A stretch of DNA of 64,000 nt from Escherichia phage vB_Ec-M-J, in the sequence record OQ718158.1. One strand, written 5' to 3'. Below the pieces are notes generated by a model. The model had not been told where the DNA came from, ran no database searches, and worked only from the letters and a program-made list of their open reading frames with translations. This document shows, in pieces, positions 24,992-42,729 of this stretch. How positions within the stretch are numbered: position 1 is the first letter of the stretch; every line of letters starts with the position of its first letter. The position numbers and the translations under genes were made by a program.

Positions 24992-25025
24992 TAACTGTAT
25001 CAAAACAACCGCAACTGAGGATACT

Positions 25026-26306: not shown

Positions 26307-26384
26307 CGTTCAAAAAGTCTCTAATAGTATTAAATACTTCTGTACAAATAATATGTGCAGAAGTATTGCTCGTTAGAGGTTATA

Positions 26385-26750: not shown

Positions 26751-26760
26751 GGTATAACAA

Positions 26761-27144: not shown

Positions 27145-27491
27145 AAGTAATTTTGTTTTTTGTTTGTATGATTATATGTGGTATGTCTTATGCAGAACCA
27201 TTACCTGGACTAGTCTGTACTGAAGGTGATATTAAACACATTTACCAAGGTGATAGCGATGACCATACTATCGTTTATATCGATGGTGAAGTGTATAATT
27301 TTGTTAAAGAACATACTGTAGGTGACATTAGTTTTACGCAGTACTCGAATGATACTGATCCCAATATGCTTGCATTTCTTCAAGTTGATGTATATGAAGA
27401 AAGTAATGGTGAACAGTATGTTAAACTTGTGATGATGCGTAAGGCAGCAAAACAGGCAACATTCGGTGGCTTGTGTAAATATGAGGACTAA
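27141..27491 (+). CDS. hypothetical secreted protein
   Basis: ATGA overlap; signal peptide. Confidence 0.55.
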   Translation: MKVILFFVCMIICGMSYAEPLPGLVCTEGDIKHIYQGDSDDHTIVYIDGEVYNFVKEHTVGDISFTQYSNDTDPNMLAFLQVDVYEESNGEQYVKLVMMRKAAKQATFGGLCKYED

Positions 27492-27495
27492 ACAT

Positions 27496-27687
27496 ATGTT
27501 GATTTATCAATGTGATAACATTCGTGTTATGCAGCATCCCTACTTACAAATCTTTGATGTGCAGCAGTATATGGAAGGTGATGACCCAAGAACCTATGGT
27601 CGTAAGTATGATTACTTCACTGTAAAGCAGTGTCATAACATCAAAGAAGTACGACAATTAGTTCAAGAACTTCAAAATAAAGGTTGA
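27496..27687 (+). CDS. hypothetical protein
   Basis: ATG at 27496 after GAGGA; stop overlaps -35 of next cassette. Confidence 0.5.
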   Translation: MLIYQCDNIRVMQHPYLQIFDVQQYMEGDDPRTYGRKYDYFTVKQCHNIKEVRQLVQELQNKG

Positions 27688-27713
27688 CTTCGGTCAACCT
27701 TTTTTGTTATAAT
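27681..27713 (+). promoter_or_regulatory. PeSL-like promoter/UUCG-hairpin cassette
   Basis: aggTTGACTtcggtcaacct hairpin containing the -35, T-run, TATAAT 18 nt downstream. Confidence 0.6.
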
Positions 27714-27742
27714 TACTTCATCAACTACTGGGGATTTTAATT

Positions 27743-28183
27743 ATGTACGTATATCGTTTTGAACTTAAATTCAGTTATATTGAACCTAACTTAGATCCAG
27801 CAAAAACAGTAGGGCCGTTCGCACGGTACTCTTCACGATACAGTACTAAAAATGGATTTGACCGTTTGTGCATGACCACGCCTTCGCAATTCCAACCAGA
27901 ACCAACTGAAGATGGAATCTATTCAATCAAACGTGGCTGGGCATTTGGCTGTCAGAGTTTGAATGATTTGTTTAAGTTCTTTACTATGGACTTGGGTAAA
28001 TTACATCGTGCAGGGTTTGCTGTATCAGTATATGAAGTTCCTGATAATCATGTTGACATTGGTCGTAGTCAGGTTCAGTACTATTGTGGTAGTGCCAATC
28101 TGGTTCGTATTATGTCAGTGAGAGAAGCAAAGGATGAGTACCGCCAAAGTAAAAGAGTAATACATGAGGCTGTATATGGATAA
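27743..28183 (+). CDS. hypothetical protein
   Basis: 146-aa ORF downstream of cassette. Confidence 0.6.
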   Translation: MYVYRFELKFSYIEPNLDPAKTVGPFARYSSRYSTKNGFDRLCMTTPSQFQPEPTEDGIYSIKRGWAFGCQSLNDLFKFFTMDLGKLHRAGFAVSVYEVPDNHVDIGRSQVQYYCGSANLVRIMSVREAKDEYRQSKRVIHEAVYG

Positions 28184-28520
28184 GACTCAAATAGAATTAA
28201 AAAAATTTGTATCGTTTTATCTACCCAATGACCCACGTTGTACACAATATGATGTTGCATATTACAATGCATTGACTACACAGTTAATGAAGAAATTCAA
28301 ACAGTGTTTGACTGTATTCAATGATGATGGTAGACGTAGATATAGAATCATTCCAATGAATGATGAAAACGATAACTACTTTGACTTTGATGTTGTTTTT
28401 CGAGCATATAATGATGATAGAATAAAATTAAATTATGAGCAAATAATGCTTGACCTCAGTGTTATCTGTGTTATAATTACTCACATAGCCGAACTTGATG
28501 GTTTAAAAGAATGGTATTAA
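28176..28520 (+). CDS. hypothetical protein
   Basis: ATG at 28176 overlapping upstream gene end. Confidence 0.5.
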   Translation: MDKTQIELKKFVSFYLPNDPRCTQYDVAYYNALTTQLMKKFKQCLTVFNDDGRRRYRIIPMNDENDNYFDFDVVFRAYNDDRIKLNYEQIMLDLSVICVIITHIAELDGLKEWY

Positions 28521-28534
28521 CTTAGAGGATAATC

Positions 28535-28801
28535 ATGAAGCTTAAATTACAATACAATGGTTTTACTTTGCGTAACGACACTGAGTTTGTCAATCGTTCA
28601 CCAGGTGCTGAGTTGTTTTTGCGAGAGATGAACATTCCTTTCGTCATCACTACTGTTGGTGACCGTGAAGTGCTACAATACGCAGAGCATCCAGTTATTG
28701 ATGTTCCGTGGTATTCTGAGCATATGTATATGGATATGGCCCGTCGCTACGACTGTAAGTTCGTAGTTGAAGGTGATAAAATTACAGTCCAATTCAAATA
28801 A
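28535..28801 (+). CDS. hypothetical protein
   Basis: GAGGA SD. Confidence 0.6.
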   Translation: MKLKLQYNGFTLRNDTEFVNRSPGAELFLREMNIPFVITTVGDREVLQYAEHPVIDVPWYSEHMYMDMARRYDCKFVVEGDKITVQFK

Positions 28802-28812
28802 GGTAACTTAAA

Positions 28813-29106
28813 ATGATCAGTACTTCAGTAAATGCAAGCATCGTGGCAGACGTAGAAATGGTTAAAGAATGTACAGACGAAACCCTTCGCAACATGTACA
28901 TCAATGATTTGATTTCAGAGTACGGAAGTCGTGGTGTTCATGAGTTTGTTCGCCTAAGCGGTGAATTGATGAAGAATCGCATTCGTATGAAGCTTAATGT
29001 GCATCCAAAAGCATGGGCGTTTACAATGAAGTACGCTGAAGATATTGTTGAGTTGCGTCGCAATGATGTGTATAATCGTTTACACAATGGTACATTAAAG
29101 GACTAA
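28813..29106 (+). CDS. hypothetical protein
   Basis: AAGG SD. Confidence 0.55.
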   Translation: MISTSVNASIVADVEMVKECTDETLRNMYINDLISEYGSRGVHEFVRLSGELMKNRIRMKLNVHPKAWAFTMKYAEDIVELRRNDVYNRLHNGTLKD

Positions 29107-29156
29107 ATTATAGGAATCCGTAAAAGGATTCCTGTTCTTGTTTATAAGGTAATAAA

Positions 29157-29381
29157 ATGAAATATCTAGTACTAGTACTGCTATTCTTGAGTACTGTTGT
29201 ATGTGCTAAACCAAAGTATCATGTAGTGTGTATCAACGAGATGGAAGGATATACTGAAACATATAAGAACCATATTGTTGAAGTTGCAGCCCAAGGTTCC
29301 TATGGGACCATCATCTTCCTTAAGAACAATGTGATTGTTCAGTACAAAAAAGATTCAAATTGTAAAGTGACTAAAAAATGA
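29157..29381 (+). CDS. hypothetical secreted protein
   Basis: Signal peptide MKYLVLVLLFLSTVVCA. Confidence 0.55.
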   Translation: MKYLVLVLLFLSTVVCAKPKYHVVCINEMEGYTETYKNHIVEVAAQGSYGTIIFLKNNVIVQYKKDSNCKVTKK

Positions 29382-29451
29382 TCTAGATCAATTTTTCAGA
29401 TATTCTCTGTAAATAATAGCAGTACAGAACATTATTTTACGGAGGTGTAAT

Positions 29452-29688
29452 ATGGAAACTATAATCATCATATGTGCGTTGTTTGCATTTTTGGTAATGT
29501 GGTCACCAACATTCATTGCATATAAAATGAAAAATAAAAATGCAGAAGCAATTATGTACGTAAACTTATGTTGCATACTAACTTATGGAATACTTTTATT
29601 CTTTACTGAATTTACATTAATCCCAGTAGTAGTTTGTTCATCAATGTTTATTTGGTTGTTTCTGCTTTATGAATCTATTAAAAAATAA
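29452..29688 (+). CDS. hypothetical membrane protein
   Basis: GGAGGTG SD; TM helices. Confidence 0.55.
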   Translation: METIIIICALFAFLVMWSPTFIAYKMKNKNAEAIMYVNLCCILTYGILLFFTEFTLIPVVVCSSMFIWLFLLYESIKK

Positions 29689-29742
29689 AAGATATAGGGT
29701 TGGTAATATGCCATCCCTTTTACTTTATGTGGGGTTTAATTA

Positions 29743-30315
29743 ATGAATAGAAAAGGTAAGTTCAAAGTATCAAAGAAGAACAAAAGTTCTAGATTTAGAC
29801 CTATAACTTTAACTTTTAAGGCTAAAGAAGAATTAACTGCACTTAGTAAAAAGATAATTTCATCTAAGATTAAAGTATCATACGTAAATTCGGTAAAATT
29901 TCAGAAGGTTAAACCACAAGACAAACTCATTTCACTTATATTTAAACGTAATGATTTTGAGATATTAGTAGATGATTATAGAGCCTATAATGCTGGATTC
30001 ATTCATGTCACTTGTAATACCGAACTAACTGAGTTGGAACATTTGACATGTATCATAAGTGTAGATAACGGTGTGGTGAAGTACAATTTTTTACATTTTA
30101 CCAATATCAATAATGGAATGGGTGTACAATCCAGACCTATAGTACCTACATGTGATGTGACTAATTTAGCAAAGCTCAATGAAGAAGAATATTTTCAAGA
30201 AAGCATTGTAACTGAGCATTTAGATGCTATAATAGCAACTTACAAAGAATGCATATGGGTTTTGAATGCGATAAAGCCCAAATTGTGTTTAATGAATGTC
30301 GTTCGTGATTTATAA
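29743..30315 (+). CDS. hypothetical protein (EE-FQ motif family)
   Basis: NEEEYFQESIV motif. Confidence 0.6.
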   Translation: MNRKGKFKVSKKNKSSRFRPITLTFKAKEELTALSKKIISSKIKVSYVNSVKFQKVKPQDKLISLIFKRNDFEILVDDYRAYNAGFIHVTCNTELTELEHLTCIISVDNGVVKYNFLHFTNINNGMGVQSRPIVPTCDVTNLAKLNEEEYFQESIVTEHLDAIIATYKECIWVLNAIKPKLCLMNVVRDL

Positions 30316-30328
30316 CTGGAGATGTAGT

Positions 30329-30772
30329 ATGGGTTGGATTAACGTTAATAGCATTGAACTAAATGAGCAAGACATATTTGCCTTTGTTAATTTGGTAGAG
30401 AACATTGCTATTAAAGGTCGTCTGTTTAGTTCATCGGACGGTAAAAAATGGATCTCTCTTATGAACGACAATGGCGAGATTTATGACGTTATGCAACTAC
30501 CTCATTGGGCTTATAAGAATACATCTGATGATGTGATGGCTGCTGTTATGCGTGAGTTTGAGAAGCTGCCAGGTGGTGATATTAAGAACATCGTATTCAA
30601 TGCAGAACGCATGAACTACACACCAGAGCAGCTTCAACAGTTGGCAATTGCTGCCTATCAAGCTGCCATTAAGAAACCTGAATGTGTGATATTAAAGTAC
30701 ACACCGAACTTGAAGTTAACACTAGAAGATATGGATTCCTTTATCTTCAGTTCAGAACTTAAACAGTACTGA
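30329..30772 (+). CDS. hypothetical protein
   Basis: ATG at 30329 after GGAGATG. Confidence 0.55.
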   Translation: MGWINVNSIELNEQDIFAFVNLVENIAIKGRLFSSSDGKKWISLMNDNGEIYDVMQLPHWAYKNTSDDVMAAVMREFEKLPGGDIKNIVFNAERMNYTPEQLQQLAIAAYQAAIKKPECVILKYTPNLKLTLEDMDSFIFSSELKQY

Positions 30773-30883
30773 TTTGACTTTGGAACAACCATTTCATATG
30801 TGATATAATCTTAAGTGTCTGTTGAAATAAACAGCACATGAAGTATAAATATTAAAGTAATTTATCTCTTTAAGGAGTATGAA

Positions 30884-31267
30884 ATGGTTGATAAATGGAA
30901 TAAGAAAGATCCATCGCATGATGTGGATATTTCTGGAATTGATAATGCACATAAGCATAAGTATCTTGATTCACTAGGTCTACTAAAGCCTGACCAAAGT
31001 CTTGCACATGATCGTCCTTCACGCGAAAAAGCTTTCAGTTTAGAATCACTAGGCCATGAATTGAATCGTGTATTTGAAGATCATCCAATTTATGTACGTG
31101 ATATCATTGAGAAACTTAAAGTGACTCCTAAAGAGCACTTCAAGGCAACAGTACACGCAGCATTCCGTGCACTACATGAAGCACTAAAGAAAACTCATAA
31201 CCTTCGTAAGATTCATGATGATATCGTGAACTCTATTGAAGGCGAAAAACATAAGTTTAAAAAATAA
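30884..31267 (+). CDS. hypothetical basic protein with SLGLL motif
   Basis: AAGGAG SD; KYLDSLGLLKP motif shared with 32115 gene. Confidence 0.6.
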   Translation: MVDKWNKKDPSHDVDISGIDNAHKHKYLDSLGLLKPDQSLAHDRPSREKAFSLESLGHELNRVFEDHPIYVRDIIEKLKVTPKEHFKATVHAAFRALHEALKKTHNLRKIHDDIVNSIEGEKHKFKK

Positions 31268-31274
31268 TTAAAAG

Positions 31275-31307
31275 GGGTTGACTTCAGTCAGCCCTTTGTC
31301 GTATAAT
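31275..31307 (+). promoter_or_regulatory. PeSL-like promoter/hairpin cassette
   Basis: gggTTGACTtcagtcagccc hairpin, TATAAT 18 nt downstream. Confidence 0.55.
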
Positions 31308-31354
31308 ATTTTCATCAAGTGATACAAAATACAAACAACGTGAGGTATTAAATT

Positions 31355-31468
31355 ATGCAAGGTACTAAATTCATCATCGCTGCCCTAATCGCTGCTGTTG
31401 TAGTGGGTACAGTATGTTATTCAATTGACACCTATATCAATACACCTAGTGTTGAACAAACCAAATAA
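31355..31468 (+). CDS. hypothetical small membrane protein (37 aa)
   Basis: GAGG SD; single TM helix; below track cutoff. Confidence 0.4.
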   Translation: MQGTKFIIAALIAAVVVGTVCYSIDTYINTPSVEQTK

Positions 31469-31476
31469 GGGATATC

Positions 31477-31740
31477 ATGGCTGAAACATTATCACTATAT
31501 GCGTTAGTACTGTTATTTGTCGGATTTCTTCCCGCACTCATTACAGCCATTCGTGTTGTTAAACATGAAGCTGCATTGATTGTATGTAGTATTGGGTCGA
31601 ACATTCTATTGTATTTCTTTTTGACAAACACTATTGTACTGTTCGCTTTCTTTATCATGATTCTGTGGGTACTTGTAATTCTCGGATTCTTCATTTGGTC
31701 ATTGGTTGATCCTAAGAAAAAAACAGGAGAAGTGAAATGA
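31477..31740 (+). CDS. hypothetical membrane protein
   Basis: TM helices. Confidence 0.55.
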   Translation: MAETLSLYALVLLFVGFLPALITAIRVVKHEAALIVCSIGSNILLYFFLTNTIVLFAFFIMILWVLVILGFFIWSLVDPKKKTGEVK

Positions 31741-32033
31741 AATTAATTATTGTAATGATGATGTTTTTGGCTTTCCCAGTACTGGCTACTCCTAATCTGG
31801 ACTGCACACTGTTGCGTTCAGATGGTGACACACTTGAAATCAACACATATGAACTCTTTGGTCCAAGTGTAGTGGAGAATGAAACCACCTACAATTTCAA
31901 AGCTATTGACTTTGAAGGTAATGTTCCAGTACTAACTACAATGACTATTGACAAAACTACTTTACTCGGACGAATCACCACACAACGCGGAGAAAGTAAA
32001 ACATTCACAGCGAAAGCTGACTGTAACTACTAA
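31737..32033 (+). CDS. hypothetical secreted protein
   Basis: ATGA overlap; signal peptide. Confidence 0.55.
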   Translation: MKLIIVMMMFLAFPVLATPNLDCTLLRSDGDTLEINTYELFGPSVVENETTYNFKAIDFEGNVPVLTTMTIDKTTLLGRITTQRGESKTFTAKADCNY

Positions 32034-32045
32034 TGGTATAGTACA

Positions 32046-32076
32046 GTGAAAATAGGGTTGACTTCGGTCAACCTTT
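32046..32076 (+). promoter_or_regulatory. PeSL-like promoter/UUCG-hairpin cassette
   Basis: ggTTGACTtcggtcaacc hairpin, TATACT 17 nt downstream. Confidence 0.55.
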
Positions 32077-32114
32077 TCTTTATACTATAAATATAGTCAT
32101 AGAGAATAAACAAT

Positions 32115-33626
32115 ATGAAATCTATGGAGAGAAATCAAATGCCAGGTCAATTTACTGATAAAAATGGCGGGAACATGGCAGGTCACTCTGATAAATGGAG
32201 TGAACGCAATCGTCGTCAAAATAGCTACCAAGCAGGACAGGGGTCACGTGGTTCACGTAATCAAGGGACAGGTTTAGCTGGTAAGGCAAACGCAGAAGCA
32301 GGTGAAGTTAAGAGTACTGAGAACATGACTGAGCTAGAAAAGCTACGTTATGTTAACTCATTAGGTCTTCTTAACGCAACACAGAAACAACGCCTTGCTG
32401 ATATGGAACGTGCTGAGAAAGAACAAGAAGTTCCTAAAGAAGAACCAAAACCAGAAGCTCCTAAAGCAGCTAACCCTGTTAAAGAGTTATCTGATAACTT
32501 AGGTAAGATCTTTGCTAACAAACCACAGTTGATTCAGGGTATTGTCAAAGCACTACAGGCAGTTCCTAAAGAAGAACTCAAAGGTAAAGCACAAGCTGTA
32601 CTTGATGCAATGAAAGGTAATAAGAGCACTGAACCTACTGAAGTATTCAGTACTATCATGCGTGCACTTGAAGGTACACACAAAGAAGATTCCAAAGAAC
32701 CTGAACAGGGTGAAGCAAGTCTTGATGGTATTCTTAAAACTTTTGATAGTATTGGTAAAGCAGACCGTGCTAATGCCCAGCAAGTCAAGAATGTACTGGC
32801 TAAACTTGAAAACCGTTTAGAAGGTAAAGATGATAAGGTTAAGCTCGTATCAGATGCAGTTAACAGTGCACTTAAATCTTATGTACAAGGTGAGAAAAGT
32901 CGCTTCGTAACAGCTATGGATGCTGCATTCAACACTATGAAAAAGTATGAAGCAGAACATGGTGAGAAAGTGACACCTGATGGATATCTACTACGTAAAG
33001 ATGAAGAAGGTGCAGTTGAACAGAAAGATGTTGAGCCTGAGCAAGAAGATCTACCTGATACCGTTGATATGGATGGATACATTCATCGTCCTGAGATGGA
33101 AGAGTTTGGGTCAGATAAAGAAGGTTTTGAACATGCAATGGCAGTATATAAAGCATTAGTTAAAAATCCAGATTATGCTAACCGTTTTGTTGACGAGTTT
33201 GATAGTGCATGGAATAACTACAAAGAGAAAGGTTATGATTTCCCTGCTGAAGCTGCATTCTTTGAACTTGGTAAACTATTAGCTAAACATGGAATTGACG
33301 TTGGTTCATCTGATTCCGAAGGTATGGAAGAAGAACATCTTGAAATGACTGATAAATCAATTCATGAACTTCAAAAGTTAATGATGTGGATATCCGAGAT
33401 TGGTAAAAAAGCAGGTGCTGATAGTAAAAGTATCAACAAAAATATTAGTTGGATTAAAGATAATGTTGGTAACAATGCTCGTAAACTTCAAAAGGCTTGG
33501 GCTGATTTAGTAAATGGTGCAGATGATGTTGACATTGAATCACCAGAAGCATATGAGTATGCACTAACTACACTTGATAACTCATTCAAAGAGTACGACC
33601 GTGGTGTTGGAAAGGATAAAAAATAA
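32115..33626 (+). CDS. hypothetical charged Lys/Glu-rich protein (503 aa) with SLGLL motif
   Basis: Long ORF; RYVNSLGLLNAT motif; start codon uncertain. Confidence 0.65.
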   Translation: MKSMERNQMPGQFTDKNGGNMAGHSDKWSERNRRQNSYQAGQGSRGSRNQGTGLAGKANAEAGEVKSTENMTELEKLRYVNSLGLLNATQKQRLADMERAEKEQEVPKEEPKPEAPKAANPVKELSDNLGKIFANKPQLIQGIVKALQAVPKEELKGKAQAVLDAMKGNKSTEPTEVFSTIMRALEGTHKEDSKEPEQGEASLDGILKTFDSIGKADRANAQQVKNVLAKLENRLEGKDDKVKLVSDAVNSALKSYVQGEKSRFVTAMDAAFNTMKKYEAEHGEKVTPDGYLLRKDEEGAVEQKDVEPEQEDLPDTVDMDGYIHRPEMEEFGSDKEGFEHAMAVYKALVKNPDYANRFVDEFDSAWNNYKEKGYDFPAEAAFFELGKLLAKHGIDVGSSDSEGMEEEHLEMTDKSIHELQKLMMWISEIGKKAGADSKSINKNISWIKDNVGNNARKLQKAWADLVNGADDVDIESPEAYEYALTTLDNSFKEYDRGVGKDKK

Positions 33627-33635
33627 ACATTTAAA

Positions 33636-33667
33636 AGGTTGACTTCGGTCAACCTTTTTTTGTAAAT
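33636..33667 (+). promoter_or_regulatory. PeSL-like cassette (weak -10)
   Basis: aggTTGACTtcggtcaacct hairpin plus T-run; -10 only GTAAAT. Confidence 0.45.
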
Positions 33668-33697
33668 ATTGTAGAGGGTTTTATAAGAGGTAATGCA

Positions 33698-33949
33698 ATG
33701 TTTAAATATGTTTTATTTTCACTTGTATTGTTTACTGATATAGTTTATAGTACTGAATACCAGTGCTCCATTGCTAGACAGGAGTTTAGAAACGGTGAGT
33801 TCTATACCAAGTCTTACACTAGAGGATTGGTACATGACAATAATAAAACTATAGGGTTCAATGCATTTGATAACAAAGATCGATATACGTCTGGAATACT
33901 ATCTGAACGTAAGTCTGATATACTAGGTATCGAGCGTGAATTCCGGTGA
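33698..33949 (+). CDS. hypothetical secreted protein
   Basis: Hydrophobic N-terminus. Confidence 0.5.
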   Translation: MFKYVLFSLVLFTDIVYSTEYQCSIARQEFRNGEFYTKSYTRGLVHDNNKTIGFNAFDNKDRYTSGILSERKSDILGIEREFR

Positions 33950-33959
33950 CACGGTTGCA

Positions 33960-34310
33960 ATGTGTAATGATATTGAGAGTACTAAGAAAGTATATACTAA
34001 TGGTGAAAATACTTTTAGATTCCACAATCTTACTACTAATGAAAGTTTATACTTCTACAACTGTAAAGAGTTCATTAAACCTGTGGATAACTCATGTGAT
34101 ATGCCGGAGCCAAAAGCTGCTGTATGTGAGGAACCACAATCCAAAGCTGACAAAGATTCAAAAGATAAGAAAGACAAAGCTGACAAATCGGATAAAAAAG
34201 AAAACAAAAAGAAAGCTAAAGATGATAAAGATAAAAAGTCCCCTAAGCCAAATCCATTTGAAAAGCCAAAGAATGAAAAGCCAAAACCAGACATGACATG
34301 TAAAATATAA
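33960..34310 (+). CDS. hypothetical Cys-containing protein with Lys/Asp-rich tail
   Basis: ATG at 33960; low-complexity KDKKDKADKSDKK tail. Confidence 0.45.
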   Translation: MCNDIESTKKVYTNGENTFRFHNLTTNESLYFYNCKEFIKPVDNSCDMPEPKAAVCEEPQSKADKDSKDKKDKADKSDKKENKKKAKDDKDKKSPKPNPFEKPKNEKPKPDMTCKI

Positions 34311-34317
34311 AAGAAAA

Positions 34318-34350
34318 GGGTTGACTTCGGTCGGCCTTTTTTGCTATAAT
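34318..34350 (+). promoter_or_regulatory. PeSL-like promoter/UUCG-hairpin cassette
   Basis: gggTTGACTtcggtcggcc hairpin, T-run, TATAAT, conserved leader catttcatcaact. Confidence 0.6.
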
Positions 34351-34376
34351 CATTTCATCAACTACTGGAGGCAAAC

Positions 34377-34790
34377 ATGTTAAAAGTTATTTTCCGTTCT
34401 ATCAGTTCATTACTTCTTATGATTAGTTCAGTTTGTTATGCAAATGAAGTATCTGATTTATTTGAGAAGAATTACCCAACTGCACAAGAGATGGGTGTTT
34501 TAAAATGCAAGCTAACTTCGTACAACATCATCGGCAGTAAACTTGTACTAGAACATGAACGTAGTACACCAATCCCTCTAGTAGAAGAAGGTAGTACCTT
34601 TAGCTTCAAGTACGGGGTGAACGTAACATCTGGTGTAATGAACAATGTTGATGCAGAGACTGGTTCAACATGGAGTACTAGCGGTAAAGATGTGTTTCAT
34701 CGTATGCGTGAAAATGGTAAACTGAAGTACGTATATGAAAGTTCATTCATGAAACGTGTATTCATTATAAAAAATTGTGTACCAGCATAA
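34377..34790 (+). CDS. hypothetical secreted protein
   Basis: GGAGG SD; signal peptide. Confidence 0.6.
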   Translation: MLKVIFRSISSLLLMISSVCYANEVSDLFEKNYPTAQEMGVLKCKLTSYNIIGSKLVLEHERSTPIPLVEEGSTFSFKYGVNVTSGVMNNVDAETGSTWSTSGKDVFHRMRENGKLKYVYESSFMKRVFIIKNCVPA

Positions 34791-34801
34791 GGAACAACAT
34801 C

Positions 34802-35077
34802 ATGCGTTCATTTGAAAACTTAATAGGTAAACTTCGCTTACAAGAAATTGAAGCTGATGTGAAGGAATTATCTGAAACTAAGAGTTACATTCATTTAGAT
34901 GAACTGTTTATTAAGTACGGTGAGATTGGTTTTAAGTCATTATTTGTGTTTGTCATGAAGGTGCATAGTTTAAAGTACTTTGATTTGAGTTCAAAAGACG
35001 GACAACCAAATCTGTATTACATGTATTATCTTAAGAACATAGACGAAGCTAATACATTATTCTTAGAATATATGTAG
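34802..35077 (+). CDS. hypothetical protein
   Basis: ATG at 34802 after AAGGAAC. Confidence 0.5.
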   Translation: MRSFENLIGKLRLQEIEADVKELSETKSYIHLDELFIKYGEIGFKSLFVFVMKVHSLKYFDLSSKDGQPNLYYMYYLKNIDEANTLFLEYM

Positions 35078-35086
35078 GGGTAAAAA

Positions 35087-35425
35087 ATGGAACAACATTT
35101 TGAATTAATTAATAAGGTATCATTTTATGTAGTATCATTAATTTGGGTGTATTACATGTTTTGTTACATTATTGCATTCTTCCGATACACGACCTTGTAT
35201 CAACGCATATACTACGATGCACCCATTTCATTTATGATGTTCTGTGCATGTACGTGGGGGATAATTGAAGCACTGGTATGTGGATATAGTACTGACGAAT
35301 TAAATCTCGTATCGGGGTTGACATTACTAACAATTGCCATTATGATAGCTACTGTTCCGATATTTTTGCTCTTTAAACTGCTTCATCGTATCGATGAGTG
35401 GCGTAATAAAATCCCTGAAAAGTAA
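35087..35425 (+). CDS. small 3-TM membrane protein, family copy A
   Basis: Three hydrophobic helices; C-terminal WRNKIPEK. Confidence 0.6.
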   Translation: MEQHFELINKVSFYVVSLIWVYYMFCYIIAFFRYTTLYQRIYYDAPISFMMFCACTWGIIEALVCGYSTDELNLVSGLTLLTIAIMIATVPIFLLFKLLHRIDEWRNKIPEK

Positions 35426-35434
35426 GGATTGATA

Positions 35435-35776
35435 ATGATTTTTTACACTAATGCGTTTGCTTATGCCGTTGCATCAATCTACATTGTGTACTTCTTATTT
35501 GGTGGAGTACTGTACTTCTTTAAGTACAAAACATTGTTTAACCGAATGTATCCAAATCACCCAATTGTAGTAGTACTTTTGATGATTTCTGTTGCTCACA
35601 TCATTGTAGAAACAATAATGGGTATCAGTGCAGTACATTACAGTCTAGGTACTATTGTGATTATTACTATGATCATCGCATACATTTTAGTAATGGGTTC
35701 TGGTTTATTTGGGAATGTAGCAATGAAATTGTATAATCGAATTAAAACCTTACGTGATAATCTACCGGAGCGTTGA
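35435..35776 (+). CDS. small 3-TM membrane protein, family copy B
   Basis: C-terminal LRDNLPER; tandem to copy A. Confidence 0.6.
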   Translation: MIFYTNAFAYAVASIYIVYFLFGGVLYFFKYKTLFNRMYPNHPIVVVLLMISVAHIIVETIMGISAVHYSLGTIVIITMIIAYILVMGSGLFGNVAMKLYNRIKTLRDNLPER

Positions 35777-35777
35777 G

Positions 35778-36122
35778 ATGTATAATTTAAATTTAATCTC
35801 ATATATCATAACAACACTGTTTACTTTCTATACCTTTGTCGGTATACTCCTACTGTACTTTAAATTTTATAAACTCTTTGACCGTTTATATCCATCATTG
35901 GAACATGAATTCTTATTGGTGATGTACATCTGTTTAACGTGTATGTCTACATTTTTCACTGTATTTGATGGTATCATCGGTATTAAAGCTGAAGATCCAA
36001 ATGGCAGTACACTTGTTGCCTTTATCCTGGTAGGATTCTTCGGTACTTATATCACTTTCATTTCAACATGGTCTGTGGTTGATTATCTCATTAGATTACG
36101 AGATAAAATGCCAAATCGATAG
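35778..36122 (+). CDS. small 3-TM membrane protein, family copy C
   Basis: C-terminal LRDKMPNR; ATG 2 nt after upstream stop. Confidence 0.6.
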   Translation: MYNLNLISYIITTLFTFYTFVGILLLYFKFYKLFDRLYPSLEHEFLLVMYICLTCMSTFFTVFDGIIGIKAEDPNGSTLVAFILVGFFGTYITFISTWSVVDYLIRLRDKMPNR

Positions 36123-36131
36123 GGGATTGCT

Positions 36132-36389
36132 ATGTTTGCATTGCGTAATAAAAATACAAAAGAGATTCTATGTATCTCAACAGTATGGGATTGTGCAGGA
36201 AGTGAAATGATCCTCGAAGAAGGTTCAGGTGATTGTGTTTATGTTGTTCATGATCGTCGCGAACTGGAATCATTACTTGATGAATTTAATGCTGGTGGAA
36301 ATCCTAAAAGTACTCAATTCCCTGAGATCAGGAATCCAGCACCACCAGGCTCTTATGAAATTCTACAACTGTGGGAGATGGATAAGTAA
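36132..36389 (+). CDS. hypothetical protein
   Basis: 85-aa ORF. Confidence 0.55.
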   Translation: MFALRNKNTKEILCISTVWDCAGSEMILEEGSGDCVYVVHDRRELESLLDEFNAGGNPKSTQFPEIRNPAPPGSYEILQLWEMDK

Positions 36390-36769
36390 TGCGACAAATG
36401 CACAAAGTAACCGAGCTAAACAAGCGTCTGATTAAACAATCAATGTTTGAGGATAAAGAGTCTTACTATAACTTCAAACGTGCTGTAGAGGCTGCTATCC
36501 ACATTCAGAAGCTTAAAGATAGTGGATGTATTATTCTCGAAAATGGTTCTGACGTTGTTACTGATGACTTCAGTGTAGCGTTTGATGTTTCACCTGATGG
36601 TTCGCTATCAATGCCACGCTTAGGGACTGGTGACATGACTGTGTGGGTAGGTTTCACTATGGGGAATGTACCAGGCACGGTGTATGTAGATGATGCTGAG
36701 TTGAAAGAAAGCTTTAAAAACTTATCGCATCTTGAACCACAATACGCACATGAAATGAATTTATTTTGA
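36389..36769 (+). CDS. hypothetical protein
   Basis: TAATG coupling. Confidence 0.55.
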   Translation: MRQMHKVTELNKRLIKQSMFEDKESYYNFKRAVEAAIHIQKLKDSGCIILENGSDVVTDDFSVAFDVSPDGSLSMPRLGTGDMTVWVGFTMGNVPGTVYVDDAELKESFKNLSHLEPQYAHEMNLF

Positions 36770-36770
36770 G

Positions 36771-36799
36771 TTGACAAACTCATTCAGTACTGTATAATG
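36771..36799 (+). promoter_or_regulatory. sigma70-like promoter with cagtactg spacer
   Basis: TTGACA-N17-TATAAT followed by gtttatcaa. Confidence 0.6.
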
Positions 36800-36845
36800 T
36801 TTATCAAGGGGATGAACTTCTCATCCCCACAATCGAGGAATTGTC

Positions 36846-37400
36846 ATGATTACTTTTAAGAAAACTGCTAACCACATCCATGAGATCTACATTAACGGTC
36901 ACAAAGCTGGCCTTCTTCGTTTACTCGCCCATCATCCGAATATTACCGTATCTGATAATGAACCTAAAGATTGGCGTGTATTTTTCTTTGGAAAGTACAG
37001 TGATTTTCAAGTATCAAACCTGAAGAACATTCGTTCAGTATGCACGTTAACTGAAATTAAAGAAAAGTTAACCAAAGCATTGAAAACTAATCCAGATGGT
37101 GTTCTTCCACCTGATAACTTTGTAGAGAAAGGATATGCCTTAGCTCATTTCAAAGATGGTACTATTCAATCTATCAGTACTGAATATGAATATCAATGGA
37201 CTGAGTACTTCACTTATGGATCGCGTAATACATTGATGGCTTCACGTAGTAAATTGGAAGAAGTACTGACTCGTATGAATGAACGCGAGCGTCAGTACTA
37301 TGACAAACCAGAAATGTGGAGTTCAACTTACATTGACCGTATTGACTATGTTATTATGACTCCAATCTTTGACACTGCTTACTATGATTCTTTGAAATAA
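36846..37400 (+). CDS. hypothetical protein
   Basis: CGAGGAA SD; 184 aa. Confidence 0.65.
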   Translation: MITFKKTANHIHEIYINGHKAGLLRLLAHHPNITVSDNEPKDWRVFFFGKYSDFQVSNLKNIRSVCTLTEIKEKLTKALKTNPDGVLPPDNFVEKGYALAHFKDGTIQSISTEYEYQWTEYFTYGSRNTLMASRSKLEEVLTRMNERERQYYDKPEMWSSTYIDRIDYVIMTPIFDTAYYDSLK

Positions 37401-37411
37401 GGATAACTTAT

Positions 37412-37588
37412 ATGAAACTACGTACTCGTAATCGACTGATGGATGCACTGTACCATGAACAGCTTTCACTGAATGAAGTGAAGCGACAGTTAATGTACAC
37501 ATATCTGTTACCCGCTCGCATTGCAAAACAACGTGCTAAAGAATTGCTGAAAGAAGCAATCGAGTACTGGGAATCTGATTCGTACTAA
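37412..37588 (+). CDS. hypothetical small basic protein (58 aa)
   Basis: AAGGA SD; below track cutoff; the overlapping antisense track ORF is rejected. Confidence 0.45.
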   Translation: MKLRTRNRLMDALYHEQLSLNEVKRQLMYTYLLPARIAKQRAKELLKEAIEYWESDSY

Positions 37589-37616
37589 TTGTCACGTTAA
37601 TTAAGTGAGGCGATAA

Positions 37617-37868
37617 ATGAAAATTTTATTAGTTCTAATACTACTAATTGTTTTACCATTTACGTTAGTATCCCCTGAACTTGCATGGAATGTGTTTGTG
37701 TACTTACTATGTACTATGATAGTAAATGGTATCTTGTTCTTAGTTCTATTCATAAATGGAATAGGACACGGTGGAGGATGGACCAGTACTGCTGATATTG
37801 TACATAAAACCACTATGTCTTTATTTGTAGTGTGGAATTTATTCTGGACTTGGTTTGTGTTCTTCTAA
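37617..37868 (+). CDS. hypothetical membrane protein
   Basis: GAGG SD; TM helices. Confidence 0.55.
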   Translation: MKILLVLILLIVLPFTLVSPELAWNVFVYLLCTMIVNGILFLVLFINGIGHGGGWTSTADIVHKTTMSLFVVWNLFWTWFVFF

Positions 37869-37878
37869 TTAAAAAAAT

Positions 37879-38250
37879 ATGAATATAGATTTGAAAGGTG
37901 CAACACGAACTGTCATACTCATTGGGGAATATGCTATCAAGATTCCAACCTTTAAAAGTTGGAAGCTATTCTTAACAGGGATGATAGCTAACCTCAATGA
38001 ACGTTCGTGGATGCAGTACTCCAAGCGTAGTGATACTGGTATCTGTCCTACTTTGTGGTCATCATGTACTGGACTAGTAACTGTACAGAAACGTTGTAAG
38101 CCAGTACAACATAGGGGTTTATTTTGGGTGGAGTTGTGTGCTTTAGCATTGAATTCAGAGTTAAGTACTGACTTCTTCTATTCAGATGCGAAGCCAGAAA
38201 ACTTTGGGTATCTGTGTGGTAAGTTGGTTAAACTTGATTATGGAGATTAA
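37879..38250 (+). CDS. hypothetical protein
   Basis: 123-aa ORF. Confidence 0.5.
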   Translation: MNIDLKGATRTVILIGEYAIKIPTFKSWKLFLTGMIANLNERSWMQYSKRSDTGICPTLWSSCTGLVTVQKRCKPVQHRGLFWVELCALALNSELSTDFFYSDAKPENFGYLCGKLVKLDYGD

Positions 38251-38251
38251 T

Positions 38252-38521
38252 ATGTACGCATTGTATAATAAAGAAAAGAAACGATTTGCTAAGGTTGAAA
38301 TTTCGATTGATACATTTGATATGTTGGAGTACTGTATTGTAACGGACTTATATGCTAACTTGTATTACGTTCTTGATGACGTATCAGTACTGCAACGATT
38401 GCTTGAGAATTCCAAAAGTCAATGCCAGGGCATCCATGATGGTTCATCTTATGAAACACCTGAGTGTTCCTACGGCTATCTGGACGGGTATGAGATTGTG
38501 AAGTTGGGGATTGTTGAATAA
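38252..38521 (+). CDS. hypothetical protein
   Basis: ATG at 38252 after GGAGA. Confidence 0.5.
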   Translation: MYALYNKEKKRFAKVEISIDTFDMLEYCIVTDLYANLYYVLDDVSVLQRLLENSKSQCQGIHDGSSYETPECSYGYLDGYEIVKLGIVE

Positions 38522-38533
38522 ATGGATTAAACA

Positions 38534-38947
38534 ATGAAGAAGTGTATCACGTGTAATATTGAAAAAGACATTAGTGAATTTGGTATAAGAAGTGATACTG
38601 GGAAACATAGAAATACATGCAAAGGTTGTAGTAATATTACCAGTAAGAAAACCAGAAATAAAAAAACTGATGTCAAAAAACTTGAAGAAATCAAAAGAAA
38701 AAATAAAGATTTCATGACCAGAGTTAAATCATTTTATGGTTGTAGTGTTTGTATGATGAAGTATCCAGAATGTTTAGACTTTCACCATCTTGACCCTAAT
38801 ACCAAAGAACATACACCAAGTTCTATGTTCAGTAAAAGTCGAGATGCTATCAAAGATGAAATTCGAAAGTGTATGATTCTTTGTTCTAATCACCATCGCA
38901 TGGTACATTCTGGTAGACTATGTTTGATTGAAAGAAAAAAGGGTTGA
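38534..38947 (+). CDS. HNH homing endonuclease
   Basis: CxxC pairs plus DFHHLDPNTKEH...ILCSNHHRMVH; stop codon lies within the -35 of the next cassette. Confidence 0.7.
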   Translation: MKKCITCNIEKDISEFGIRSDTGKHRNTCKGCSNITSKKTRNKKTDVKKLEEIKRKNKDFMTRVKSFYGCSVCMMKYPECLDFHHLDPNTKEHTPSSMFSKSRDAIKDEIRKCMILCSNHHRMVHSGRLCLIERKKG

Positions 38948-38973
38948 CTTCGGTCAGCCCTTTTTGCTATAAT
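38941..38973 (+). promoter_or_regulatory. PeSL-like promoter/UUCG-hairpin cassette
   Basis: gggTTGACTtcggtcagccc hairpin, T-run, TATAAT. Confidence 0.65.
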
Positions 38974-39001
38974 CATTTCATCGAAACGAGAGGATGAATA
39001 C

Positions 39002-39517
39002 ATGACACGCATTAACTTAGTACACGTTAAAGAACTTGCTGACCAACATCTGATGGCTGAATATCGTGAACTCCCACGTGTGTTTGGTGCTGTACAAAAA
39101 CATGTTCAAGCACGTAAGCGAGTCCGTGATTTCAAAATTAACAGTACTTACCTGTTAGGTTCAGGTCATGTAACATTCTTCTACAACAAGTTATTGTACT
39201 TACAGAAGCGTCATATTGATATTGTTAACGAATGTTTGCGTCGTGGTATGAAGATTCAAAACACTGAAGTAAACGACATTAGCGGATTCCCTGCTGAGTT
39301 TTGTAATGACTACGTACCATCGGAGTCAGAGATTAAAATGTCTCGTGAGCGTTTGATTGAGAAGCTCCAGATGAAGCCTACGTGGTATAAATTTACTGAC
39401 GTTGAACGCCCACAGTACGTTAAAGATATGCAGGACGTAAGTAGTAATATAGAATCTAGTACTGATATGTTAGACGAAATTGAAGAACAAATCAAAGATG
39501 AAATGAATAATTATTAA
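39002..39517 (+). CDS. denV: endonuclease V (pyrimidine-dimer DNA glycosylase/AP lyase), T4 DenV homolog
   Basis: N-terminus [35 protein letters not shown]...RVRDFKI...GHVTFFY closely matches T4 endonuclease V as recalled from memory. Confidence 0.8.
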
Positions 39518-39522
39518 AGGTA

Positions 39523-39540
39523 AGGGTTAACTTCGGTCAC
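39523..39540 (+). repeat. degenerate remnant of PeSL-like cassette
   Basis: gggttaacttcggtcac resembles the cassette hairpin but lacks T-run and -10. Confidence 0.35.
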
Positions 39541-39555
39541 ACAAAGGAACATAAC

Positions 39556-39750
39556 ATGTTATTAGTATATTCAAAGCGTTTCTGGATTTCTTTTATTGTA
39601 CTATCGCTTATCGGCTTCGGTGTGAGTATACTCTTTTCGTGGGATGAATTGGGTACATGGTATTATGAAGTTCCGTGGTACATGAAGATAGCTCCTTGTT
39701 ATGCGGCATTGTTCGTGTCATTCCTTATTGTTGTCTTCAGCGAGGATTAG
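39556..39750 (+). CDS. hypothetical membrane protein
   Basis: AAGGAA SD; two TM helices. Confidence 0.55.
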   Translation: MLLVYSKRFWISFIVLSLIGFGVSILFSWDELGTWYYEVPWYMKIAPCYAALFVSFLIVVFSED

Positions 39751-39801
39751 TTGATGTAGTAGGTGCTACACCAAAGTATTTGGATATTTGAGATATAAAC
39801 A

Positions 39802-39830
39802 TTGACACCTGTTCTATCTTTCTGTATTAT
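39802..39830 (+). promoter_or_regulatory. sigma70-like promoter
   Basis: TTGACA-N17-TATTAT. Confidence 0.5.
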
Positions 39831-39856
39831 GTACATCACCAAATGAGGAATACCAC

Positions 39857-40216
39857 ATGGCATCTTTAAGTGAAATCGCGGAATACAACCCACTAACAAT
39901 CTCAACAATTCAACGTACAAAAACTTTTTATTTCCGTCCTGCTGATGGATGGAAACGTGGAATGAATGGTGACTATCGAGTACTGGAAGATGCACTCGTC
40001 GAGCGTATCAACTCTGAACTACATAAGTATGAAGGTGTTAAAGTTGTGCGTTCAACTTCTCGTTATTTTGAGTACTACATTGAGTCTTCAACTGTAAATG
40101 AAAACTCATCATTCTCGGTGGATAACACTGATATTCTTCGCAATGCAGTTGGTCTGTTATGCAACATTGCTGAGGAAATGGGATTAACTATTACTACAAT
40201 GAGTGAATTAGAATGA
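39857..40216 (+). CDS. hypothetical protein
   Basis: GAGGAA SD. Confidence 0.6.
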   Translation: MASLSEIAEYNPLTISTIQRTKTFYFRPADGWKRGMNGDYRVLEDALVERINSELHKYEGVKVVRSTSRYFEYYIESSTVNENSSFSVDNTDILRNAVGLLCNIAEEMGLTITTMSELE

Positions 40217-40410
40217 TTAAAACTTTTATTCTTACTATGGTATTTGGGTCTTATGGGTATGGTGGTGGTGTAGCAACAGTTGAGTATCCATTATACGAAG
40301 ATTGTAAGGCCGCCGCTGAAGTGTTTGTAAAAACAACCAAAGATTTAGCAACTGTCACTGATGCAAAAGCTTGGTGTACAACTAAAAATACACCAGAAAC
40401 TAAGAAATAA
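40213..40410 (+). CDS. hypothetical secreted/membrane protein
   Basis: ATGA overlap; hydrophobic N-terminus. Confidence 0.5.
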   Translation: MIKTFILTMVFGSYGYGGGVATVEYPLYEDCKAAAEVFVKTTKDLATVTDAKAWCTTKNTPETKK

Positions 40411-40418
40411 AAAATAAA

Positions 40419-40451
40419 GGGTTGACTTCGGTCAGCCCTTTTTGCTATAAT
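40419..40451 (+). promoter_or_regulatory. PeSL-like promoter/UUCG-hairpin cassette
   Basis: Near-identical copy of cassette at 38941 and 41830. Confidence 0.65.
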
Positions 40452-40477
40452 TATTTCATCAACTGATGAGGTAACAA

Positions 40478-40714
40478 ATGAAACTATCTTTTATACGATT
40501 AGCTGAATTTTTCGGTACTAATGTAATTACTCTACAACAAATCGCAGATAATACATCATTAACTACTCAAGAAGTACTTGACTTAGATGTAATTCAGTGC
40601 GATAATACTTCCATCGATTACAAAGAAGGTCTTGTCGAAAAAGATAAGATTCAAGCTAAGATTAATGGTGCTGGACGGGTTCAGTACTGGAAAGGAGTTT
40701 TAAGTAATGTATAA
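40478..40714 (+). CDS. hypothetical protein
   Basis: GAGG SD in conserved cassette leader. Confidence 0.55.
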   Translation: MKLSFIRLAEFFGTNVITLQQIADNTSLTTQEVLDLDVIQCDNTSIDYKEGLVEKDKIQAKINGAGRVQYWKGVLSNV

Positions 40715-41822
40715 ATTTTATTTTAATGACGATGGTGAAAAAGTTTATTTCCACGAAGAACTTGGTATGCGTTTTGAATGGATGCACGCGGAAGACATTG
40801 AACAATTTTCTTGTGGAAAAACTGCCAAAGACCACGTTGATGACATAGAGGCATCATTCTATGATTTAGGAATAACTGATATCACAATTTTGGGTATTGG
40901 TGTGTCAAACGCAGCTGAATTTGGTATTTCTGGAAATTCACATGCTAAAATCGTCTTAAAAAAAGACGATATCATCTATAATAATTATAAAATAACTGCT
41001 TTTAAAACAAAGCTTAATAAGTTGTCAGAAGGTGATGGTATTAAGTTATCTTTTTCATACACAAATGATAATTATTACTATTACGTAACCAAACTTGCAA
41101 AATTACAATCTAAAAACTGTCATATACATCCAAATGAAATAATTGATAATGGAATTTCATCTAAAATAAAATTCACATATAGTGATGGTGTAACTGTACC
41201 TAGAAGAATAAATGATATATTGACAAAAACTAAAATTAATGTGAGTTATTTTGTAGATGATGATATTAGAGATGGGGTAGCTTTAAATCGATGTAGAGAA
41301 TTGAAATATCATTTTCAGTCTATTTACAAGCATGAGAATGGACGATACTTTGTAAAATATGAGTGTACTAGAGGTCATCAATGTGATCAAGACTATCATG
41401 CATTTACTGGTACAGCGAAGCAATCATGTGGTGTGTGTTCTAAACTTAAGACACACTCATATGGTCATAATGATACCATGAAATTTTTAAGGAATTTGCA
41501 TATTACAATAACGGAAAAAACTTTCAATGATTTGAAAGATAAAATGAAACTTCCATATGATTTTTATGTGAAAGATTTAAATGCGTTGATAGAATATGAC
41601 GGTAGTGATCATTTTAAAAATAAGTCATCTCGAAACAATTTTATTGATCGTCAGAAGAAAGATAAAATGAAAACGGAGTACGCAATCAACAATGGATATA
41701 ACTTCCTACGAATTGCATATTATGAAGGTCATCTTGAAGTACTGGAATCTTTCCTGAAACTCATCGAAGAGAACCCAGGAAAGCAAATCGTACAGATTTA
41801 TGGTGATGTGAAAATCATCTAA
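40707..41822 (+). CDS. putative nuclease with C-terminal Vsr/DUF559-like domain
   Basis: C-terminal ALIEYDGSDHF...RQKKD...NGYNFLRI pattern plus internal Cys cluster; family assignment from memory. Confidence 0.4.
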   Translation: MYKFYFNDDGEKVYFHEELGMRFEWMHAEDIEQFSCGKTAKDHVDDIEASFYDLGITDITILGIGVSNAAEFGISGNSHAKIVLKKDDIIYNNYKITAFKTKLNKLSEGDGIKLSFSYTNDNYYYYVTKLAKLQSKNCHIHPNEIIDNGISSKIKFTYSDGVTVPRRINDILTKTKINVSYFVDDDIRDGVALNRCRELKYHFQSIYKHENGRYFVKYECTRGHQCDQDYHAFTGTAKQSCGVCSKLKTHSYGHNDTMKFLRNLHITITEKTFNDLKDKMKLPYDFYVKDLNALIEYDGSDHFKNKSSRNNFIDRQKKDKMKTEYAINNGYNFLRIAYYEGHLEVLESFLKLIEENPGKQIVQIYGDVKII

Positions 41823-41829
41823 AACAAAA

Positions 41830-41862
41830 AGGGTTGACTTCGGTCAGCCCTTTTTGCTATAA
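41830..41862 (+). promoter_or_regulatory. PeSL-like promoter/UUCG-hairpin cassette
   Basis: gggTTGACTtcggtcagccc hairpin, T-run, TATAAT, leader catttcatcaactgatgagg. Confidence 0.65.
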
Positions 41863-41891
41863 TCATTTCATCAACTGATGAGGATAACGAA

Positions 41892-42662: not shown

Positions 42663-42729
42663 TTACATGTATTGACAGCACTACACTATGGTAGTACTAT
42701 AACTTAATATTCACCACCGGAGATACGAT

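Follow-up and report, generated by a model that had tools for sequence, protein, structure and literature searches.

A stretch of 64,000 nucleotides from Escherichia phage vB_Ec-M-J (sequence record OQ718158.1), called the window below, carries a short element that recurs between genes. Its core, GGTTGACTTCGGTCARCC, was found ten times between 19.2 and 41.9 kb (at most three mismatches), against 0.01 matches expected by chance from dinucleotide-preserving shuffles of the window. The cores start at positions 19209, 27682, 31276, 32056, 33637, 34319, 38942, 39525, 40420 and 41832, all on the + strand, which is the sense strand of the genes. An independent repeat search of the window recovered the same repeat family. 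A preliminary description, made by reading this DNA, had proposed a repeated cassette of about 55 bp, and these counts confirm that it is real; the coordinates given there were accurate to within 1-2 nt, with the exception of 32046, which should read approximately 32055. We further scanned the whole window, with filters off, using a covariance model derived from the nine intact copies. The nine copies scored 52-76 bits, the only other hits above 32 bits were minus-strand echoes of these, and the remainder of the window outside 19.2-41.9 kb held none.

An intact copy is laid out as an A-run, two or three Gs, TTGAC, TTCG, GTCA(G/A), two or three Cs and a T-run. The ten copies are the following:

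19205-19234, + strand: hairpin-only copy, AAAGGGTTGAC-TTCG-GTCAGCCCTTTTTTT; -18 kcal/mol, z -4.8; no -10 box.
27679-27742, + strand: full cassette; -35 TTGACT at 27684-27689; TGTTATAAT with the -10 at 27708-27713; ATG at 27743.
31270-31354, + strand: full cassette with the loop mutated to TTCA; -35 at 31278-31283; -10 TATAAT at 31302-31307, without TG.
32054-32138, + strand: hairpin and TATACT (17-nt spacer), the TATACT overlapping TATAAATA at 32086-32093.
33633-33697, + strand: hairpin with a long T-run and a weak -10-like TAAATA; Shine-Dalgarno (SD) site, then ATG at 33698.
34314-34376, + strand: full cassette; -35 at 34321-34326; TGCTATAAT with the -10 at 34345-34350; ATG at 34377.
38935-39001, + strand: full cassette at the boundary between an HNH endonuclease gene and denV; -10 at 38968-38973; denV ATG at 39002.
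39521-39542, + strand: remnant, GGTTAACTTCGGTCACAC, that retains the 5' arm and the loop but only the first bases of the 3' arm.
40416-40477, + strand: full cassette preceding a 78-codon open reading frame (ORF), which is followed by an HNH/homing endonuclease gene (40707-41822).
41826-41891, + strand: full cassette with the exact 56-nt consensus, preceding a P-loop NTPase (ATPase) gene with its ATG at 41892.

Complete cassettes account for six of the ten copies; three others are intact hairpins lacking a good early -10 box, and the copy at 39525 is a remnant. The full 56-nt consensus is matched exactly only at 41828-41883 and almost exactly at 40416, and its 36-nt part, comprising the hairpin and TATAAT, recurs with at most two mismatches at 34315, 38938, 40416 and 41828. 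The copies share an element set in unrelated surroundings: beyond the approximately 55 nt of the element, the flanks show no similarity, and the copies are therefore not a segmental duplication.

The element is fitted closely to the borders of the genes. On the upstream side, the stop codon either ends 9-11 nt ahead of the core or coincides with the TGA contained in TTGAC, as the preliminary description had pointed out for some copies; this is the case at 27682, where it terminates an upstream ORF, and at 38942, where it terminates the HNH endonuclease gene. In complete copies, the next ATG lies 58-61 nt from the core start and is preceded by a GAGG-type SD site; at 31276 the leader is longer than usual and leads to a 37-codon ORF. 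Past the remnant at 39525, the sequence is unrelated up to the ATG of a 64-codon ORF; this copy has neither terminator nor promoter and marks the junction of an inserted module. The cassettes had been described as bracketing denV, an HNH gene and the ATPase gene. For denV, a full copy indeed stands on one side, but the other side has only the dead remnant, and the HNH and ATPase genes have one copy each, on one side only. Two HNH/homing endonuclease ORFs (38534-38947 and 40707-41822) were recognized in this part of the window by PHROGs; unlike PHROGs, a Pfam search of both ORFs found no domain.

Folded as RNA, the nine intact copies form hairpins of 9-14 bp capped by a C(UUCG)G loop; their energies range from -14 to -21.6 kcal/mol and their z-scores from -3.6 to -6.9. 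The remnant at 39525 has no fold (-2.2 kcal/mol, z 0.18). All nine have the form of an intrinsic terminator, that is, a GC-rich stem of at least 5 bp with a short loop and a directly following U-run. A simple terminator scan listed just three of the nine, probably because the outer A/U pairs consume part of the T-run that is counted. An Rfam scan of the window returned only five tRNAs, at 3.4-6.8 kb; the hairpin is therefore not a known RNA family, and we found no phage paper quoting the letters of the motif in the literature searched. A separate repeated hairpin, AAAAAGCCAGTAC-N4-GTACTGGC, occurs seven times, once at 12264.

Running the covariance model over approximately 350 kb of other phage contigs yielded 90 non-overlapping copies, and pairing statistics were computed on 37 distinct hairpins from many phages. 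Standard pairs are formed in 97.3% of the cells; as a control, sliding the partner by 1-3 columns lowers pairing to 21-61%. Changes on both sides of a pair were observed in 13 cells at three outer-stem pairs, a number reached by none of 500 shuffles. The one-sided changes in the stem are of the G.U type (at one pair, U.G occurs 31 times and U-A five times), and copy 34319 itself has two G.U pairs (GTCGGCC). Such changes pair on the + strand and give C.A mismatches on the opposite strand, which is why the minus-strand folds are weaker (-14.1 vs -19.8 and -18.7 vs -21.6 kcal/mol). Stem pairing is thus under selection on the + strand, and the data support the view that this strand alone is selected and that the structure is read in the sense RNA. 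The pattern fits an RNA terminator whose 5' arm doubles as a -35 box. Indeed, the inner stem TTGAC/GTCA is nearly invariant across the 37 hairpins, as expected if it is also needed as the -35 box, and the loops differ between phages (TTCG, TTAG, TACG, GAAA, AGAT and others). We speculate that the G.U wobble may be retained since a perfect palindrome would place a TTGAC -35 box on the opposite strand.

The promoter half of the element has a constant spacing, also in other phages. In other phage contigs, a TAnnnT hexamer lies 17-18 nt past the -35 in 75 of 86 distinct copies (64 of them with TG), both counts being biased upward because the search model included the -10 region. Six copies carry TTGACT, located within the stem, followed after 18 nt by TATAAT (-35 starting at 27684, 31278, 34321, 38944, 40422 and 41834), and five of these six have TG ahead of the -10 (TGnTATAAT). 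Among the other three intact copies, 19209 has no -10, 33637 has a weak one and 32056 has TATACT at 17 nt. The arrangement proposed at the outset, with the -35 in the stem, TATAAT 18 nt later and a leader ending in GAGG, is accordingly found in six of the ten copies but not in the other four. In the close relative WPEC3, the cassette before the ATPase gene (contig positions 17637-17692) has the loop ACTA in place of TTCG (GGGTTGAC-ACTA-GTCAGCCC), which gives a perfect TTGACA with the stem kept; the first loop base is therefore the sixth position of the -35 box.

The three intact copies without a good early -10 each have a setting of their own. Copy 19209 sits 9 nt past the stop of a phage sigma-factor gene (18232-19200, Pfam sigma70 regions 2 and 3) and is most likely a terminator only, as predicted from its sequence. 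It is followed by an ORF-poor gap of about 650 nt (19235-19862), which is also present in 121Q and had no Rfam match at the gathering threshold. Copy 33637 can be read as a degraded or terminator-only copy. Copy 32056 precedes a gene for which the 121Q homologue carries a structural-protein annotation, and this copy is predicted to be a terminator combined with a probable late promoter. The T4-type late promoter motif, TATAAATA, occurs three times in the window (6864-6871, 30844-30851 and 32086-32093) against 11.9 +/- 3.6 expected. Two of the three sites lie 33-50 nt upstream of genes (30884-31267 and 32139-33626) with 121Q homologues annotated as structural, and one of these sites directly follows the hairpin of copy 32056. 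This suggests that late promoters are set into a region otherwise of the early type and that the motif is selected against in other places.

The element is very probably a composite terminator/promoter boundary of the promoter-early stem-loop (PeSL) type, whose copies would also act as recombination patches through which genes are swapped. In the upstream mRNA, AAAGGGUUGAC-UUCG-GUCAGCCCUUUUU would fold into an 11-bp hairpin with a C(UUCG)G tetraloop and a U-run, a form that would terminate transcription and also shield the 3' end of the upstream transcript. At the DNA level, the 5' arm of the same hairpin would serve as the -35 box (TTGAC, with the sixth position supplied by the first loop base), and the extended -10 TGnTATAAT 18 nt downstream would allow the host sigma70 RNA polymerase to start about 7 nt past the -10. 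The new transcript would begin just before the short leader, the GAGG SD site and the next ATG, and upstream transcripts would end in the T-run, approximately 13-17 nt before that start site. The upstream A-rich run may serve both as outer stem and as an UP-like element. The outcome would be a string of insulated early units of one to a few genes each, set among small accessory genes. The 36-56 nt of near-identity between copies would, in addition, provide homology patches for the phage's general recombination system, and recombination between copies would delete, insert or swap the enclosed genes with the expression signals left intact. The preliminary description had likewise linked a PeSL-type composite to gene shuffling, a link now supported by four lines of evidence: folding, covariation, promoter spacing and the breakpoints described next.

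Identity of the region to Escherichia phage fEgEco12 and other coliphages of 350-385 kb is 99%, with matches in 34 Escherichia records, and we assign the genome to the 121Q/PBECO4-type (Rak2/121Q-like) jumbo coliphages, Asteriusvirus, and not to the T4 type. We aligned the window with seven genomes at about 98-99% identity (fEgEco12, WPEC3, Turkey3, CMSTMSU, BF17, WPEC5 and Ecwhy_1) and with two more distant ones, 121Q and JP4, at 82-92% (82-89% in the backbone). The interval 18-38.5 kb is collinear with all seven close relatives except for an indel in Ecwhy_1 at 21.6-22.0 kb, and nearly all differences within 18-42.4 kb fall at 38.5-42.4 kb, in the stretch that begins with the HNH gene, includes denV and ends with the P-loop NTPase gene. 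Comparing gene content across the relatives revealed the 3' end of denV joined to three different downstream genes. In fEgEco12, the denV end (…aataattattaaagg[a/t]aag) runs into a full cassette and then the leader and ATG of the ATPase; in BF17, the same end adjoins a full cassette that leads to the leader and ATG of the 78-codon ORF; and in the window, Ecwhy_1, 121Q and JP4, the half hairpin comes next and then the 64-codon ORF. The fEgEco12 sequence matches window positions 24002-39539 and then 41828-44846, with a 19-nt overlap of the two segments inside the hairpin. The topologies of fEgEco12 and BF17 are those that excision between copies, as mini-circles, would leave.

Five relatives contain the block formed by the cassette and the 78-codon ORF (40416-40718), which is 93-95% identical and set in different neighbourhoods. 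The restart of the conserved backbone is at 41820-41828 in five relatives, and for BF17, CMSTMSU and Ecwhy_1 the block that they share with the window begins again at 38936, in the denV cassette. Overall, four of the 11 distinct breakpoints among close relatives lie inside cassettes (38936, 39539, 40416 and about 41825), whose footprints make up 3% of the 20.6 kb compared (P = 2e-4 for a uniform null; P ~0.02 when compared with gene junctions only); the events are clustered and hence not fully independent. Breaks at the level of 121Q and JP4 (31318/32049 and 40214/40411) also adjoin cassettes. Copy 34319 stands upstream of a 41%-identical allele of 121Q gp204, and its 121Q counterpart stands downstream of gp204, before a kinase gene that is absent from the window. 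The modules of the hot spot are 93-97% identical to 121Q/JP4, compared with 82-89% for the backbone, which indicates exchange between lineages.

Several observations weigh against this interpretation. The 18-nt spacer is suboptimal for sigma70, a good early -10 is absent from three intact copies, and the literature searched contained no transcript 5' or 3' end data for this phage or its close relatives. The counts of -10 spacing in other phage contigs carry the upward bias noted above. Seven of the 11 breakpoints lie outside cassettes (38516, 38549, 38867, 39405, 39760, 40714 and 42444), and BF17 also differs in cassette-free parts of the window, namely a second promoter repeat, the tRNA zone and an RCC1-like array. 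The six cassettes from 19209 to 34319 show no indel among close relatives, so that the element alone does not make a hot spot, and the hot spot is full of HNH/homing endonuclease genes. In one alternative, the hairpins are terminators only, their likeness to promoters is incidental, and the variation between denV and the ATPase gene stems from homing endonucleases and not from recombination between cassettes. Such an account would accommodate the three copies without an early -10, the two HNH/homing ORFs of the hot spot and the different large endonuclease-like ORF that each relative has in this interval; homing with co-conversion would also place breakpoints, such as those at 38516/38549, 38867, 39405, 40714 and 42444, at or inside genes adjoining endonuclease ORFs. 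We nevertheless consider it unlikely as a full explanation: a TGnTATAAT-type -10 stands 17-18 nt from TTGAC in six of nine copies and in most copies from unrelated phages, TTGAC is invariant whereas the outer stem covaries, and the joins in fEgEco12 and BF17 remove or exchange whole modules with both ends in shared cassette sequence, which homing by itself does not predict. Homing is a second and probably major cause of the variation in the hot spot, as the two HNH ORFs of the window and the differing endonuclease-like ORF of each relative suggest, and the cassettes are one of several types of short homology used for recombination in this genome.

Two further readings take the element as a DNA site or as the product of a recent event. 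The consensus of FNR-type boxes is TTGAT-N4-ATCAA, and the palindrome TTGAC-N4-GTCAA resembles it and overlaps the -35, where a CRP/FNR-type dimer or a phage repressor could repress the promoter. Most copies are, however, asymmetric (GTCAG and not GTCAA) with a G.U pair kept in the + strand RNA, the outer stem (GGG/CCC and A/T) shows covariation, three of its pairs having changed on both sides, the loop varies freely, a T-run follows every copy, and the centre of the palindrome, computed from its position, is near -29.5, which is not an activator position. An operator is thus highly improbable, and we rejected the FNR-box reading on the asymmetry and the covariation. Even less credence can be given to a single recent duplication, or the recent spread of a small mobile element in this genome, as the origin of the copies. 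Such an origin would fit the copies at 38942, 40420 and 41832, which share 36 identical nt and are at most 3 kb apart, but copies occupy orthologous positions in 121Q and JP4 (82-89% identity) and in other genera such as those of CBB, RaK2 and GAP32, their flanks are unrelated, and copy 33637 shares the private variants AAAAGGTTGAC...GTCAACCTTTTTTTGTAAATAT with its 121Q counterpart. Stop codons and SD sites are interlocked with the element, which carries no transposase of its own and lacks both inverted-repeat ends and target-site duplications. Given the orthologous positions and unrelated flanks, we rejected both a recent duplication, which the preliminary description had raised as a possible refutation, and an origin resembling a miniature inverted-repeat transposable element.

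The PeSL-type composite has well-characterized precedents. In RB49 and phi1, PeSLs consist of a strong sigma70-like promoter fused to a stem-loop, for which promoter activity, terminator activity and the formation of mini-circles were demonstrated experimentally; they occur in hyperplastic regions at indel junctions, and in some subclasses the -35 is covered by the stem-loop (Arbiol et al. 2010, PMC2839356). The window element shares with them a near-consensus sigma70 promoter combined with a GC-rich stem-loop between the stop codon and the SD/ATG, as well as the deletion or swapping of ORFs by recombination between copies, here inferred, with crossovers inside the element (in RB49/phi1 including the loop). 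The activities and circles are experimental there and inferred here, and the stem differs (GN-loop-CN in RB49). PeSLs were next found in PST/T4 and nt-1/KVP40 (Comeau, Arbiol & Krisch 2014, PMC4122927), the consensus in the latter pair being a stem of A3-4 G3-loop-C3 T3-4 with the promoter TTGYVH-N17-TAWWAT; half or degraded copies and middle-promoter variants (PmSL) are part of that description (PMC4122927). The window element fits this stem and promoter consensus, is near-identical to the KVP40 copies, and is likewise intergenic, confined to small-ORF regions and adjacent to indels of close relatives. It differs in its 350-380 kb Rak2/121Q-like jumbo host, which is not T4-like, in a loop that is nearly always UUCG (variable in KVP40), in its spacer of 18 instead of 17 nt, in fewer copies per genome (13 in 170 kb of 121Q) and in one copy paired with the late-type TATAAATA motif.

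Each half of the element is by itself an ordinary bacterial signal, a Rho-independent C(UUCG)G terminator and an extended -10 sigma70 promoter; here the two are fused into a repeated unit in which one terminator arm acts as the -35 box. Phage morons and integron cassettes are alike in that accessory genes bring their own expression signals and that repeated boundaries are sites of gain and loss. Unlike integron cassettes, the window showed no integrase or attC-type site, and homologous recombination over 36-56 nt is presumed; morons, for their part, are not bounded by a conserved repeat. We found no earlier account of PeSLs in Rak2-like phages in the literature searched. The RaK2 genome paper does not discuss promoters, a jumbo-phage review merely cites the PeSL paper, and the CBB paper, which lists 18 RpoD-like early-region promoters with an UP-like element, reports no stem-loop composite. 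The kind of element is already known, and as far as the literature searched goes, its occurrence in Rak2-like jumbo phages is new. The preliminary description was right about the architecture, which is also that of KVP40, and had matched it to the PeSL cassettes of T4-type phages; the phage here is not of that type. The T4-like host genome that characterized the original PeSL group is not found here, and the mechanism does not require it; 121Q does carry T4-like core genes, such as gp17-, gp41- and gp44-like genes.

In 121Q, the covariance model, run over positions 1-169.8 kb, found nine copies at 90.2-112.8 kb, the counterpart of the window region, and four at 144.9-153.8 kb, 13 in total and all in small-ORF stretches; the replication/structural part and the paralogue array held none within these positions, and the second half of the genome was covered by exact-pattern scans only. 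A 48-nt query matched 157 records among named phage genomes, including Rak2-like jumbo phages of Escherichia, Klebsiella, Salmonella, Serratia, Yersinia, Erwinia, Pectobacterium and Cronobacter, 37 Vibrio records (KVP40-like phages among the matches listed), 16 Aeromonas records (65-like T4 relatives among the matches listed), rV5-like phages (CR3, CR9, PBES 02 and others) and Brochothrix phage A9. The architecture GGGTTGAC-N4-GTCAGCCC is shared with KVP40 and many other large phages; KVP40 has at least six sites of the form AAAAAAGGGTTGAC-N4-GTCAGCCCTTT…GTATTAT followed by an SD site and ATG, and VH7D has five. An exact 24-mer had seven matches in 185,579 bacterial and archaeal species genomes, mostly in metagenome-assembled genomes or Vibrio contigs, and the element is therefore not a common host signal.

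A composite of about 35 nt (A-run, GGG, TTGAC, 4-nt loop, GTCAG, CCC, T-run and TGnTAT(A/T)AT), often continuing into a leader of the CATCGAAAC type, thus recurs in Rak2-like jumbo, KVP40-like, Aeromonas 65-like and rV5-like phages and in Brochothrix phage A9. It could be one shared linker circulating among unrelated large virulent phages rather than repeatedly invented, a proposal that we regard as doubtful. If true, the linker would form a common homology patch letting accessory genes pass between phage families, and the near-universal G.U wobble would be a shared derived feature, perhaps kept for removing the TTGAC -35 box from the opposite strand.

A further motif, CTA(A/G)CCCA(Y)NGGGTGC…TATCT, lies about 25 nt past the cassette -10 in related jumbo phages and one 109-kb contig (contigs L016, which is 121Q with three model hairpin copies, L006, L024, L031, L085, L092 and L098), sometimes with its reverse complement about 70 nt further on. 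It matches no Rfam family, is absent from the window, and may be a small structured leader or non-coding RNA.

Other repeats in the window lie apart from the cassettes. One of them is a second class of promoter, which lacks a hairpin: TTGAC(A/T)-N10-AGTACTGTATAAT, its spacer being the conserved palindrome CAGTACTG, occurs at 4116, 21596, 25905 and 36771, more weakly at 2747, and with related repeats at 4528-4570 and 5288-5330. An additional module of about 350 nt is present in BF17, and its junction (window 4536-4566) falls within one of these repeats. The tRNA zone (3423-6841) contains five tRNA genes among small ORFs and three tandem 161-nt repeats (3601-3964), and shows several indels compared with BF17. 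On the minus strand, 46280-63701 holds a tandem array of about 15 RCC1-like paralogues of approximately 1.2 kb each with conserved starts, annotated in 121Q as 'putative DNA condensation'; BF17 has several rearrangements in this array.

These findings extend PeSL-type cassettes from T4-like phages to the Rak2/121Q jumbo group, and the near-identical 35-nt sequence in unrelated phage families raises the question of convergence versus exchange. For a region in which nearly all genes lack a known function, the cassettes give a map of probable early transcription units and of module boundaries. They mark sites of gain and loss, as seen for denV, the endonucleases, the kinase in 121Q and small ORFs, and may thus be of use in annotation, in reading the mosaicism of these genomes, and in engineering, as safe insertion sites that bring their own expression signals.

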